From NCBI GenBank assembly GCA_963842085.1, contig CAWJET010000001.1, positions 2,784,001 to 2,848,000 on the forward strand: 64,000 bases of DNA. Reading direction: 5' to 3'. The DNA comes from an uncultured delta proteobacterium. GTDB taxonomy: Bacteria > Desulfobacterota > Binatia > Binatales > Binataceae. Positions 3,121 through 7,923 of this stretch are shown one piece after another (position 1 is the first letter of the stretch; the number at the start of each line of letters is the position of its first letter). The notes beneath the pieces were generated by a model, which had not been told where the DNA came from, ran no database searches, and was given only the letters and a program-made list of their open reading frames with translations. Both the position numbers and the translations under genes were made by a program.

Positions 3121-3137
3121 TCGGCATCGGCTTTGCA
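3121..3137 (+). promoter_or_regulatory. Putative sigma-54 (-24/-12) promoter
   Basis: TCGGCATCGGCTTTGCA has GG(3123-24)-N10-GC(3135-36) with TTGCA. It lies about 100 bp upstream of an operon encoding a sigma-54 activator. Confidence 0.65.
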
Positions 3138-3239
3138 GTTAGAGGCCAGGACTCGAAAATGGCATCGATTGTCTTAGTTCTGGCGATTAACGATAGTTCA
3201 GTTACACGGACCGGCATTTCCGGCCCCAGGTGAGGCAGG

Positions 3240-4772
3240 ATGTTCGGCATCTTTCTAATAGCACTGATCATTTACGCCGTCGTGCAACATCGAAAGCGCA
3301 ACCGCATCCGCTGGATGAAGTACGGCGACTGGTCGAAGTACGACTGGTCCAAGCACGACTGGTCGCAGTACGGCAACTACTCGAAGTGGTCGCGTGACTG
3401 GTCGAAGTGGACCGAGCACGCGAAGGCGTCCACGACGGCGTCTGCCGAGCGCTTCGCAAGCGACCTGCACGCCAAGATAAAGCGCGACTTCGACAGCAAG
3501 ATGGCGCGCAAGTTCGAGGCCAAGGCCGAGAAATTCGAGCGCAAGCTCAAGGCGCGATTCGATCGTCAGACGCAGAAGTACAGCGGCGTCAGCGCGGATC
3601 CAGCGCAGGATTTGCCGCCGCCACCGCAGTTCAAGAACGACGCCGAGCGCCAGACCTACGAGCGCGCGCGCAAACGCGCCCAGGCCGAGGCCGGCTTCTT
3701 CATCCACCTGATGTGGTACGGCATCATCATCGGCTTCCTGTTCATCATCAATCTGATGACGGGCGGGTTTGGCGGATATCCGTGGTTCCTGTGGCCGGCG
3801 CTCGCCTGGGGATTCGGAATCGCAAGCCACTTCGCGGCGGTGTACGGCTGGCGCTGGGTTCACGACCGGGTTTTCCAGCCTACGATCGCGCGCGAAGTTC
3901 AGCGCGAAGTTTTGCAGGAGAAGGAGCAGTTGCGGACCGAGAAGCAGGCGTCGCTCGACGAGCTGACCGCAACCTTCGCCCACGAAATCCGAAACCCGAT
4001 CGCGGCGGCCAAGAGCCTGGTGCAGCAGATGGGCGAGGATCCCACTTCGCACGAGAACGTCGAATACGCCAAGGTCGCGCTCGACGAGCTCGCACGGGTC
4101 GAGCGCAGCGTGTCGCATCTGCTGAAATACGCGAAAGAAGAAGACTACAAGTTCGAAGACGTGAATCTCGCCTCGGTGGTCGACGGCGCCCTGACGCAGA
4201 TGCGCGGCAAGCTGGAGGCAAACTCGGTTATGGTGTCGCGCGCCTACCTGAGCGGTCCCACGGTGCGCGCCGACGCCGACAAGCTGCGGCAGGTGTTCTC
4301 GAACATCATCGACAACGCGATCGACGCGATGGAATCGACGACCGGCGAGCGGCGGCTCGAGTTCGCGATCCAGAACAACGGCGCGGGAATGGCGGCGGTC
4401 AGGATTCGCGACAACGGCTGCGGGATTCCGGACGACAAGATCGCGAAGATTTTTAATCCGTTCTACACGTCGAAGACCAACGGCACCGGGCTCGGCCTGG
4501 GGGTCGCGAAAAAAGTGATCGACTCGCATCGTGGAACGATCGAGGTGCATAGCAAGGTTGGGCAGGGCACTGAATTCGTGCTGTCGATTCCCCTCAGCGA
4601 TGCGGTGCGCGAGAGCGCCGATCAATCGAGCGAGGAAGCATCAAGCGACGTGGTCGGAGCATCGGCAGAACCGGCATCGCAAAGCAGCGGCCGCGGTGCG
4701 GCTGAAACGACGCCGATCGTTGCGCTGGCCGCCGGCGCGCAGACCACTGAAAGTTCGAGGACACGCAATTGA
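3240..4772 (+). CDS. Sensor histidine kinase: N-terminal TM, Trp-rich repeats, 2TM domain, HisKA, HATPase
   Basis: H-box [10 protein letters not shown]-box [10 protein letters not shown] boxes DNGCGI, FYTSK and GTGLGL. 2TM-like segment [15 protein letters not shown]...[10 protein letters not shown]. Confidence 0.93.
3327..3410 (+). repeat. In-frame 15-bp tandem repeat encoding DWS(K/Q)(Y/H)
   Basis: GACTGGTCGAAGTAC, GACTGGTCCAAGCAC and GACTGGTCGCAGTAC at 3327-3371, with a fourth copy at 3396-3410. Confidence 0.85.
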
Positions 4773-6223
4773 AAGGCCGATTGCTGGTAGTTGACGACGA
4801 GCGCGGAATCGTCATCGCGCTCAAAGGGCTCTTCACCAAGGAGGGCTACGAAGTCGAGACCGCGGAGTCGGGCGAGGAAGCGCTGGAGAAGGTCAAGGCG
4901 GGCCTGTTCCACGTCATCATCACCGATCTCAGCATGAAGGGAATGAGCGGGCTCGAATTGCTCAAGCAGGTCCGCGAACTCGATCCCGCGTGCGCCGTGC
5001 TGATGATCACGGCGTTCGGCACGCAGCGGATCGCGGTCGAGGCGATGAAGGCCGGCGCCGAGGACTACCTGCCCAAGCCGTTCGACAACGACGAGCTGCG
5101 CCTGAAAGTGCGCAAGGTGATGGAGACGCAACTGCTCAAGCGCGAGCATAACCAGTTGCTCGAGCAGGTGCGCCTCGAGACCGGGGTTTTCGAGAATATG
5201 GTCGGGCGCTCGCGCGCGATGATGCGTGTGTTCGAGACGATTGACAAGGTTGCGCCGACCGACGTCACGGTTTTAATCCGCGGCGAATCGGGCACCGGCA
5301 AGGAGCTGGTCGCACGCGCGATCCATTTTCGGAGCCCGCGCGCCCGCAAGCCGTTCATCGCGGTGAATTGCGCGGCGTTCTCGCGCGAATTGGTCGAGAG
5401 CGAGCTGTTCGGCCACGAGAAGGGCGCGTTCACCGGCGCCGTCGCCCGCCGTGAAGGAAAATTCGAAGCGGCCAACGGCGGCACGTTGTTCCTCGACGAG
5501 ATTGGCGACATGGCGCTCGAGACGCAGGCCAAATTGCTGCGCGTGCTGCAGGAGCAGGTGTTTGAGCGCATCGGCGGGAATCAGCCGCTGAGCGTGGACG
5601 TACGGATAATCGCGGCGACCAATCAGGACCTCGAAGCGATGATAGCTCTGGGCAAGTTTCGCGAGGATCTCTACTACCGCCTGAAGGTCGTCGAGATTCG
5701 CGTGCCGCCCGTGCGCGAGCGGCGCGAAGATATCCCGCTGATGGTCCAGCACTTCATCGCGGAGGCATGCCAGCGTTTCTCCGCGCCGGAAAAGCAGCTC
5801 ACGCCGGAGGCTATGCGCGCGTGTGTCGAGGCGCCCTGGAAAGGCAACGCGCGTTCGCTCAAGGCAGCAATCGAGCAGGCGGTGATCCTGGCGCCAGGCG
5901 CGGAGATTACCGCGGAAGATCTTTTTGCCGGCTCCGAGCCGGACAGCGAGCACGCCAGCTCGCCGGCGACGAACGCGTCGAATCATGCCGCGGCGTCCAA
6001 TGATACCGGCGAATCCACGATGACGTTTCGCGAGGCGAAGGAGAAATTCGTCGGCGATTGGGAGCGCGATTTTTTCGTCCGCGCGCTGCGGGCGACCGGG
6101 GGCAATATTTCGCGCGCCGCGGAGCGGACCGGGATGTACCGCCAGAGCTTTCAACAGAAAATGCGCGAACTCGGAATCACACTCGCGGATATCGGGCTCG
6201 CGCCCAAGAGTGACTCCAACTGA
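4769..6223 (+). CDS. Sigma-54-dependent response regulator (REC-AAA+-HTH, NtrC/AtoC family)
   Basis: VVDDE, phosphoacceptor in ITDLSM, Walker [15 protein letters not shown], Walker B LFLDEIG, C-terminal GNISRAA HTH. TTG start overlaps the kinase stop. Confidence 0.95.
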
Positions 6224-6251
6224 TTTCGCGCCGCCGCGGAGACGATAAGCT

Positions 6252-6734: not shown

Positions 6735-6794
6735 AAATTTTAGCAACTGTCGGCCGCGCGAGCGGATCACCTCGCGGCCCAAAGGAGAACGAAA

Positions 6795-7535
6795 GTGCTA
6801 TCAAGATTTTTCAAATTGCTCGGAGGCAAGTTCAGCCGCTGGATTAAAGCGCGCGAGGCGCGCGACCCCGAGGCGGTGTACGAGTCCGCAATCTCGGACC
6901 GCGTGCGCCGCTATCATCAGCTCAAGACCGCGGCGGCCGGCGTCATCTACATGCGCAACAAGCTCGAGCGCGAGCTGCGTGGAAAGCTCGCCGAGATGAA
7001 GGAAGTCGACGAAGAAGCGGGGCAGGCCGCCGACATGAATGAGGATCAATGCGCGCTGATCCTGATTCAGCGCAAGCACATCCTCGACGGCGACTGCACG
7101 CGCCTGCGCGAAGAACTCGGCGAGCTGACTACAGAGGCCGAGGACGCGAAGAAGAATTTGATCGCGTTCAAGGGCGAGATCGAGAAGCTCAAGGTCGAAA
7201 AAGTGCGAATGATCGCGCGGCTGAAGAATGCGCAGGCGCGCGTGCGAATCCAGCGCGCGCTCGAGGAGATTTCGTACGACGACGACGTCCGCGCGCTTGA
7301 AGAAGTGCGCGAGTCGATTCAGCGGATGCTCGCGCAGGCGGGCGTCAATCACGAAATCGCCGGCTCCGAACTCGGCGACAAGCTCGAGGCAATCCGCCAG
7401 CGCAACGCCGAGGCCAAGGCCCAGGCCGAGCTCGCGGACTTGAAGCGCAAACGCCGCCCGCCGCTGGCGCCGATGGATATCTTCACGGCCGCCGCCAGCG
7501 CCGCGGCCAACGGCGACGTCAAGCACGCGAACTGA
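6795..7535 (+). CDS. pspA: PspA/IM30 (ESCRT-III-like) family protein
   Basis: Amphipathic N-terminal helix MLSRFFKLLGGKFSRWIK then DPEAVYESAI, long coiled coil, C-terminal AQAELADLKRK. AGGAG RBS before the GTG start. Confidence 0.82.
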   Translation: MLSRFFKLLGGKFSRWIKAREARDPEAVYESAISDRVRRYHQLKTAAAGVIYMRNKLERELRGKLAEMKEVDEEAGQAADMNEDQCALILIQRKHILDGDCTRLREELGELTTEAEDAKKNLIAFKGEIEKLKVEKVRMIARLKNAQARVRIQRALEEISYDDDVRALEEVRESIQRMLAQAGVNHEIAGSELGDKLEAIRQRNAEAKAQAELADLKRKRRPPLAPMDIFTAAASAAANGDVKHAN

Positions 7536-7551
7536 GACGGAGACGCGAACG

Positions 7552-7923
7552 ATGCGGCCCATAGTTATTGTGCTGGCGTTGTGTGCCTTGATCGCGAGCG
7601 CAGGGTGCGCTCGTGGGCCGTATCCCGAGCCTACGCAGCGTCCGGGCGAACCTGGCGCGGCGGCGAATGAACCGCGCGGCATATGGGCAAACAGCGTATT
7701 TGGTGGTGTCAGTGTAAGCGCGACGACCGATGTCTGCGCCGGACGCGTGCAACTCGCTCAAGGCGCCGCGACGGCCAACGATACGTGCTTCACCGGCGAC
7801 ACCAACGTCGTGCTGTGCACCGACACGTCATCGGCTAACGCGGTCCAATGCGCCGCGGCGAACGGGAAGCTTGTGCTGGCCGGGACCGGGAGCGATCTGA
7901 TCAACTACGCCCGCGTCAGATGA
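7552..7923 (+). CDS. Hypothetical lipoprotein with 4 further Cys
   Basis: Signal peptide ending ASAG-C, Pro-rich linker, beta-rich C-terminal domain. GGAG RBS. Confidence 0.7.
   Translation: MRPIVIVLALCALIASAGCARGPYPEPTQRPGEPGAAANEPRGIWANSVFGGVSVSATTDVCAGRVQLAQGAATANDTCFTGDTNVVLCTDTSSANAVQCAAANGKLVLAGTGSDLINYARVR

Follow-up and report, generated by a model that had tools for sequence, protein, structure and literature searches.

A probable sigma-54-dependent pspA operon with its own two-component system in uncultured soil bacteria of the Binatus group

The window analysed here, a 64-kb stretch of DNA (64,000 nucleotides, nt; G+C content 62-63%) from an uncultured soil bacterium of the Binatus group, carries a pspA gene together with genes for a histidine kinase, an NtrC-type response regulator, a small membrane methyltransferase and a lipoprotein-like protein. 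We conclude that these genes probably constitute one autoregulated, sigma-54-dependent operon, in which a two-component switch is joined to the membrane-protection protein that it controls. PspA/IM30 proteins are widespread in bacteria and, to our knowledge, few of their control circuits are understood, namely PspF/PspBC, LiaFSR and the actinobacterial ClgR and PspC-kinase systems. The locus would represent a further solution, in which the sigma-54/AAA+ output is kept and sequestration control is replaced by phosphorylation from a membrane-embedded kinase, with a wiring conserved across a widespread uncultured soil lineage.

An NtrC-type regulator and a PspA/IM30 protein behind a histidine kinase

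An earlier reading made from the letters alone (the sequence-only reading) had described five tightly packed, co-oriented genes at 3121-7923, and every part was found in its place. The five open reading frames (ORFs) all lie on the + strand between 3240 and 7923. The kinase and regulator ORFs overlap by 4 nt, the TTG start of the regulator overlapping the kinase stop codon, and the subsequent gaps are 28, 60 and 16 nt. The features of the locus are as follows (aa, amino acids):

3018-3049, + strand: candidate upstream activating sequence (enhancer-like), formed by the overlapping 18-bp palindromes TGCAGT-N6-ACTGCA (3018-3035) and TGCA-N10-TGCA (3032-3049)
3122-3137, + strand: sigma-54-type promoter element CGGCATCGGCTTTGCA, with GG at 3123-3124 and GC at 3135-3136, conserved in related loci
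3240-4772, + strand: kinase, 510 aa (Pfam, alignment A1, AlphaFold 2 model, hydrophobic moment)
4769-6223, + strand: regulator, 484 aa (Pfam and NCBIfam)
6252-6734, + strand: methyltransferase, 160 aa (PEMT profile)
6752-6779, + strand: GC-rich stem-loop (single-sequence folds), immediately before AAAGGAG (6781-6787), the ribosome-binding site of pspA
6795-7535, + strand: pspA, 246 aa (PspA_IM30 profile)
7552-7923, + strand: lipoprotein-like ORF, 123 aa, no family

The regulator belongs to the NtrC family, with a receiver (REC) domain, an AAA+ domain (GAFTGA at residue 219) and a Fis-type helix-turn-helix (HTH). In Pfam it matches Response_reg (108.9 bits, residues 6-114), Sigma54_activat (254.6 bits), AAA_lid_14 and HTH_8, all above their cut-offs, and the presence of Response_reg agrees with the sequence-only reading that this is not a REC-less activator of the PspF type. 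Residues were counted over 69 regulator sequences, after six of 74 regulator ORFs had been dropped for falling outside 470-500 aa. D53 and K103 are invariant in all 69, and the GAFTGA motif is present in 63, with GSFTGA in the other six. The closest solved structures are of the Aquifex NtrC1/NtrC4 type, PspF ranking well below. In NCBIfam, in which none of the five operon proteins has a named equivalog, the regulator resembles NtrC, AtoC (450 bits, cut-off 714) and ZraR (396 bits, cut-off 760), and it reaches 280 bits against the PspF equivalog, whose cut-off is 443.6.

The 246-aa protein, on whose kinship to PspA the sequence-only reading had staked its case, matches PspA_IM30 (PF04012; 74.8 bits, cut-off 33.9), its residues 2-219 covering positions 3-217 of the 220 in the profile. 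Its closest solved relatives are cyanobacterial Vipp1/PspA proteins (E 1e-10), and it scores 30 bits with the NCBIfam PspA profile, whose cut-off is 243. Residues 1-18 form an amphipathic helix (hydrophobic moment 0.65, mean hydrophobicity 0.03) that is conserved in the 33 sequences of alignment A2 and is predicted to bind the membrane. Beyond the Pfam core, a C-terminal motif resembling RRRPPLAPMDIFT, in which a basic run is followed by PPLAPMDIFT (residues ~216-235, 7440-7500 in the window), is kept across the lineage and could be a docking peptide.

The core of the locus outlasts local synteny

Relatives were collected by a one-genome-per-species scan with the kinase alignment, which returned 115; the best 80 of these 115 were used, and linkage was counted by tblastn of the window proteins. 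By record title, the 80 loci comprise 31 from Binatus/Binataceae, 47 from a generic (delta)proteobacterium and two from 'Acidiferrales'. The sequence-only reading had proposed such a comparison of neighbourhoods, and within the one lineage covered the linkage was complete: the regulator gene starts no more than 300 nt after the end of the kinase gene in 73 of 73 eligible loci, and pspA lies within 2.6 kb of that end in 70 of 70. The flanks of the locus in the window are:

2105-2953, - strand: pyrF, upstream flank (Pfam)
7927-9210: cinA, followed by pgpA and a cytidylate-kinase-like gene, downstream and convergent with the operon (Pfam)

These flanks are retained less often, pyrF in 48 of 71 loci and cinA in 47 of 65. 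There are 13 loci in which both flanks have changed and the kinase-regulator-pspA core is intact; the core thus persists beyond the local gene order, and this speaks for a functional unit.

Two database proteins, P0091 (781 aa) and P0106 (763 aa), appear as kinase-regulator fusions. We rejected them as real fusions, since the matching locus from a long-read metagenome-assembled genome (MAG), L026, has interrupted alignments typical of frameshifted assemblies, and both are probably frameshift or gene-calling artefacts.

A conserved sigma-54-type promoter and enhancer-like palindromes

The sequence-only reading had also placed a GG-N10-GC promoter in front of the kinase gene. The two doublets are indeed there, and the pattern by itself occurs at chance level (1034 matches in the window, 1060.8 expected), so that a GG-N10-GC match was rejected as promoter support on its own. 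The same is true of the 16-nt consensus TGGCAC-N5-TTGCW when two mismatches are allowed (22 matches, 25.2 expected). What gives the site at 3122-3137 its significance is conservation, and conservation only: the motif GGCA[CT]N5NTGC[AT] lies no more than 450 nt upstream of the kinase gene in 72 of 74 eligible loci (the misses being L060 and L078), against a background of 18 occurrences in 2.41 Mb elsewhere in the 80 loci, counted on both strands, or 0.0036 per 480 nt. Aligned at this motif, the loci vary in the spacer and in both flanks but retain GGCAYC at -24 and TTGCW at -12; in the more distant loci the motif reads TGGCATCCGGCTTGCT. From its position, transcription would be expected to start near 3148, giving a leader of ~92 nt.

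Upstream of this element, the two palindromes of the candidate activating sequence begin 105 and 91 nt before the -24 GG, and the triple TGCA box that they form is unique in the 64 kb (one match, 0.11 expected). With the window added to the 72 loci, 73 sequences could be anchored on the promoter; an exact TGCA-N10-TGCA starts between -115 and -70 in 63, and the other ten carry it with one mismatch. At least two copies are present in 48 of the 73, the background being 124 in 1.2 Mb, and the inner ten bases vary freely among relatives. Such palindromes are the usual look of a site for the dimeric Fis-type HTH of an NtrC-family activator, and we infer that the tandem TGCA-N10-TGCA palindromes are bound by the regulator of the operon itself.

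In none of the loci does a sigma-54 motif immediately precede the methyltransferase gene or pspA. Together with the conserved motif before the kinase gene, this makes a single operon that includes its own regulators, under positive autoregulation, the simplest reading, and autoregulation had been called probable from the window alone.

The motif GGCA[CT]N5NTGC[AT] has only three matches in the whole window, and one of them is a second good site:

17943-17958, + strand: sigma-54-type motif AGGCATTTGTTTTGCT, 243 nt before glnA (18187-19614)

glnA is a classical sigma-54 gene, and this motif hints at the use of sigma-54 in the organism, a lead and not a proof. A terminator-like hairpin at ~17814-17852, after an OmpL-like porin gene, precedes the glnA motif. 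Elsewhere in the window, a palindrome TGCAGG-N6-CCTGCA at 37740-37757, which resembles the enhancer half-sites, precedes a MacB/FtsX-like permease gene (36557-37702, - strand) by ~40 nt, with no -24/-12 motif nearby.

The kinase carries a 2TM module and a distinctive juxtamembrane segment

In Pfam the kinase matches 2TM (PF13239, residues 141-219, 65.9 bits, cut-off 24.8), HisKA (239-301) and HATPase_c (345-453), and no HAMP (at E ≤0.01) or PAS domain was matched in it. The 2TM domain is shared by the kinase homologs. The closest NCBIfam families to the kinase core are AtoS (195 bits) and ZraS (159 bits), with cut-offs of 646 and 479. We derived the layout of the protein from an alignment of 16 homologs (A1), the AlphaFold 2 (AF2) model and hydrophobicity measures. 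It begins with a hydrophobic helix (residues 2-16) followed by an Arg/Lys cluster. Trp-Ser-Lys-type repeats come next (~25-58), whose number and length differ between species and which are modelled with low confidence, and then a long charged helix (~66-112) with a narrow Phe face and a hydrophobic moment of 0.4-0.55. A Pro-rich linker and a strongly conserved basic stretch lead into the 2TM pair, modelled as helices 134-174 and 182-264 with an outer loop of ~7-10 residues. The third transmembrane (TM) helix runs on as one helix (182-264) into HisKA, and a disordered tail follows HATPase_c. The charge distribution suggests that the segment of ~125 residues is cytoplasmic and that only ~10 residues face outwards.

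The sequence-only reading had pictured a kinase with a tiny outer loop and a 2TM domain fused straight to HisKA. Both features hold, but the picture was incomplete, having missed the N-terminal TM helix and the ~125-residue Trp-rich/amphipathic segment. This Trp-rich and amphipathic juxtamembrane segment is the most distinctive part of the kinase.

To see how far this sensor extends, a HMMER pass with kinase residues 1-240 covered 1.84 billion representatives and gave 1267 clusters at E ≤0.001, only 11 of them below 1e-30 for the full sensor (TM1, Trp repeats, amphipathic helix and 2TM). Beyond close relatives, the match is confined to the 2TM part. All 29 of the longer matches scanned carry the 2TM module, joined to HisKA in six, an adenylate/guanylate cyclase in seven, and a Ser/Thr kinase, a LytS-type kinase and pentapeptide repeats in one each; the remaining proteins have 2TM alone or with DUF6320. 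Judged by these domain partners, 2TM is a membrane module that many kinds of signalling protein have adopted, and in the literature searched no function is attached to PF13239. A shorter subfamily of 2TM-HisKA kinases, ~420 aa long, is found under record names that include Binatia, Acidobacteria and Deltaproteobacteria. A tblastn search with PspA and the 2TM region gave no match in 72,556 plasmid records.

One operon or neighbouring units

In the circuit that we favour, the kinase, placed almost wholly in or on the cytoplasmic membrane by three TM helices, a ~10-residue outer loop and a Trp-rich/amphipathic segment on the inner face, would sense membrane disturbance and phosphorylate the NtrC-type regulator at D53. 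The phosphorylated regulator would assemble on the tandem TGCA-N10-TGCA palindromes ~100 bp upstream of the -24/-12 element and use ATP to open the complex of the sigma-54 holoenzyme with the promoter. Transcription of the whole operon would then supply more kinase and regulator, a positive feedback, as well as PspA and, where present, the methyltransferase and small envelope proteins, and PspA would bind and stabilise the damaged membrane.

Several points weigh against this reading. The linkage evidence comes entirely from one lineage, of Binatus/Binataceae-type MAGs, and the scan patterns are specific to close relatives, so that shared ancestry explains part of the conservation. RpoN had no family match among the 60 called and 47 further ORFs of the window. 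The AF2 model of the kinase has a mean predicted local distance difference test (pLDDT) score of 62.6 and is confident in the catalytic domain only. Finally, the stem-loop between the methyltransferase gene and pspA could split the transcription units, and pspA may have a separate sigma-70 promoter.

An alternative is that the genes are neighbours and not one circuit: the kinase and regulator would autoregulate a bicistron and control genes elsewhere, perhaps in response to a non-membrane signal, and pspA with its tail would be expressed from its own promoter. In favour of this, the conservation lies within one family, in which synteny is generally high, pyrF and cinA also being kept in about two thirds of the loci, and the lack of a sigma-54 motif directly before pspA agrees equally well with co-transcription and with a sigma-70 promoter of its own. 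The stem-loop does separate the methyltransferase gene from pspA in many loci: its minimum free energy is ≤-12 kcal/mol in 47 of 72 sequences (mean z -1.46), and the stem is usually kept in single-sequence folds of relatives as its sequence varies. In the window, however, it is weak (z -0.83) and has no U-tract, RNAalifold on a MAFFT alignment of 32 pspA leaders gave no consensus stem, and the element, of uncertain significance, could possibly serve in transcript stabilisation or processing. Likewise, the gaps of 28-60 nt contain no T-rich terminator, and a crude consensus scan for sigma-70 promoters and terminators over 2700-8300 came up with neither a promoter on the + strand nor a terminator within the operon. 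The alternative also sits poorly with the 13 loci whose core survived the change of both flanks, with the adjacency of pspA to the regulator gene where the methyltransferase gene is lost, and with a triple enhancer-like box that occurs once in 64 kb. We therefore regard separate units as unlikely.

A bolder version of the single operon, which we consider quite doubtful, would have the kinase itself replace PspBC or LiaF. The Trp repeats and the Phe-faced helix, lying on the inner leaflet beside the 2TM pair, would detect defects in lipid packing or the extent to which PspA covers the membrane surface, and the PPLAPMDIF-type motif of PspA could dock on the kinase and close a negative feedback, making a self-contained minimal Psp module. 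A complex prediction for kinase residues 20-140 (A1) with PspA (A2) scored 0.19 against a mark of 0.32, which gives no verdict either way on binding. If true, this would be a third, mechanistically distinct coupling of a bacterial ESCRT-III protein to the state of the membrane, with the 2TM domain as an all-purpose sensor of membrane state that cyclases and Ser/Thr kinases also employ. If only the plain single-operon reading holds, the locus is a tidy regulatory variant of moderate interest and introduces no new principle. In either case the promoter, the enhancer-like site, the kinase and the regulator are defined and could be rebuilt in a laboratory host, which could reveal what 2TM-domain kinases sense.

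Relation to the enterobacterial Psp system

The locus shares with enterobacterial Psp (pspF and the divergent pspABCDE in E. coli K-12) a PspA/IM30 protein, an AAA+ GAFTGA activator with a Fis-type HTH and, probably, control from a sigma-54 promoter. It differs in several respects. Its activator has a histidine kinase partner and a REC domain, whereas PspF, as far as the accessible literature describes it, is without a receiver domain. The regulatory genes lie upstream in the same operon, whereas enterobacterial pspF is divergent. The conserved -24/-12 motif stands before the first operon gene (in 72 of 74 loci) and not directly before pspA. As the sequence-only reading had stated, the window holds no partner of these kinds: PspB, PspC, REC-less PspF and LiaF had no family match among its 60 called and 47 small or uncalled ORFs, and the gene after pspA follows at a distance of 16 nt.

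Part of the enterobacterial logic might nevertheless have been retained, with PspA holding the AAA+ domain of the regulator inactive and the kinase and REC domain acting as an added second input. Over 330 residues, E. coli PspF and the AAA+ domain of the regulator share 38% identity, and the operon that encodes the regulator also encodes PspA. However, PspF W56, which we take to be the residue needed for contact with PspA, aligns with regulator A192, a position occupied by Ala in 68 of 69 sequences and by Ser in the remaining one, and BLASTP detects no similarity between the PspA of the window and E. coli PspA (E 7.5). A REC domain with an intact phospho-acceptor, moreover, already provides control, and we consider this feedback very unlikely.

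The methyltransferase and the tail genes

The third gene encodes a small polytopic membrane protein of the PEMT/ICMT superfamily. The profile searches proposed by the sequence-only reading (PspA_IM30, 2TM and PEMT) all gave matches above cut-off, for PEMT 42.4 bits against 25; ICMT, the other family named, reached 22.5 bits, just under its cut-off of 24. Residues 35-158 align weakly with the C-terminal part of solved ICMT-type chains (E 1.3e-4 to 0.014), and the NCBIfam matches to LmtA and isoprenylcysteine methyltransferase are weak and far below cut-off. The gene lies between those for the regulator and PspA in 63 of 70 loci. It is missing from L048, L053, L055, L056, L060, L075 and L077, and also from L037, which was too short for eligibility, and in the loci that lack it pspA directly follows the regulator gene. 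Because it has proved dispensable in evolution, the methyltransferase is an accessory member of the operon, with a predicted enzymatic role; the earlier suggestion that it is an extra effector found nothing in its favour. That the locus is mainly a membrane-modification module, in which the methyltransferase would alter a lipid or lipoprotein upon the kinase response with PspA as a helper, is extremely improbable, for all the frequency of the gene and its ICMT-like C-terminal region, given that some loci lack this gene and none lacks pspA, that no substrate can be named and that the matches to characterised enzymes fall far below cut-off.

Clustering of the ORFs downstream of pspA revealed three recurrent tail genes. 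The first is the fifth ORF of the window, which has no Pfam or NCBIfam family and is Cys-rich; its hydrophobic N-terminus (signal peptide) and Cys19 make it look like a lipoprotein. The Atlas gave only weak leads from it to small lipoproteins, and its own model has a pLDDT of 0.36. Of 67 loci, 49 have a homolog no further than 1.2 kb downstream of pspA, and in 28 it follows pspA directly (≤150 nt).

The second tail gene, also lipoprotein-like, has Gly-rich beta-helix repeats and occurs in eight more distant loci, among them:

L043, 12528-13001: beta-helix lipoprotein-like ORF
L053, 11609-12055: beta-helix lipoprotein-like ORF
L054, 12308-12721: beta-helix lipoprotein-like ORF
L061, 12195-12635: beta-helix lipoprotein-like ORF

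All four members scanned gave sub-threshold matches to Bactofilin, the best at 26.9 bits against a cut-off of 27.9.

The third is an ORF of 117-129 aa that starts 8 nt after pspA in 11 loci and is absent from the window:

L009, 12275-12655: probable LiaF-C-like ORF; also in L003, L010, L011, L012, L013, L016, L020, L026, L031 and L044

It carries repeated units of the form hydrophobic-FGG-x-(I/V)-D-L. In a language-model search of the Atlas, 26 of 30 matches fell to LiaF-like_C clusters; scores of 0.93 and 0.92 came with 184 and 188 shared features. Pfam matches were weak, with one of four members at E 0.025 and, in a set of 24, two at E ≤0.01 (best 0.0015), all below the 29-bit cut-off; the L009 ORF had no Pfam match at E ≤1, and none of the 120 homologs listed carried a precomputed Pfam domain. 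The AF2 model is all-beta (mean pLDDT 62), and a fold search of the PDB with it gave no match at E ≤0.001. Taken together, a LiaF-C-like (Toastrack-type) protein is probable. If so, some Binatus species pair PspA with a partner of the kind found in Lia and in other PSP systems covered by the available text of PMC11237479.

Relation to Lia and to other two-component systems

As in Firmicute Lia (liaIH-liaGFSR), a PspA homolog is associated with a two-component system whose kinase is almost devoid of an extracytoplasmic part. The sequence-only reading went further and described a hybrid of Lia-like sensing and sigma-54 output. The short-loop kinase and the conserved -24/-12 element stand, but 'Lia-like sensing' is an analogy only, the kinase having no HAMP match, an unrelated 2TM (PF13239) membrane module and a large cytoplasmic segment. 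In the available text of PMC11237479, LiaS consists of TM, HAMP and kinase domains, and LiaR of REC and HTH domains without sigma-54; the regulator described here, in contrast, has an NtrC-type output through sigma-54. The window also has no LiaI-like or full LiaF gene, yet the probable LiaF-C-like gene after pspA in 11 relatives brings the parallel with Lia closer than the window shows.

ZraPSR is treated as an envelope-stress response with a sigma-54 output, in which ZraS has a periplasmic sensor domain and the target is zraP, not a PspA. In NCBIfam the kinase core comes closest to AtoS and ZraS, and AtoC and ZraR are among the best matches of the regulator. All of these scores fall far below the equivalog cut-offs, so the pair are not orthologs of ZraSR or AtoSC. 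Overall, the system would work like an envelope-stress response of the Psp/Lia type and is a member of neither PspF-PspBC nor LiaFSR, since it lacks defining features of each.

As to published systems, the available text of PMC11237479 reports PspF-type NtrC-AAA regulators, and pairs of a kinase with a REC-HTH protein, next to pspA; in the parts available, its supplementary file has no occurrence of 'REC+NtrC' or 'Binat', and its main text none of 'methyltransferase'. Kinases adjoin pspA in Actinobacteria according to the accessible portion of PMC9239133, in which Binatota are not mentioned. The psp activator of Desulfovibrio vulgaris, DVU2989, is a single-component regulator without an N-terminal domain (PMC4641369, available text). 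We found no description of a kinase and an NtrC-type response regulator controlling pspA in the literature searched (PMC12316311 included), which is thin in subscription journals, and we provisionally consider the two-component sigma-54 wiring of pspA undescribed so far.

Other features of the window

Scans of the window with Rfam (gathering thresholds) and for tRNA genes were empty. An NTP_transf_2 nucleotidyltransferase gene at 36157-36513 (- strand) adjoins a weak HepT-like ORF at 35700-36170 (22.1 bits, cut-off 23.5), and the pair (35700-36513) looks like an MNT-HepT toxin-antitoxin system. A respiratory cluster occupies 46183-57382 (+ strand), encoding a multihaem cytochrome c, a molybdopterin/4Fe-4S subunit, an NrfD-like membrane subunit (49047-50990) and ActD, as in alternative complex III, and then cytochrome c oxidase subunit II, a fused subunit I+III and the CtaG assembly factor.

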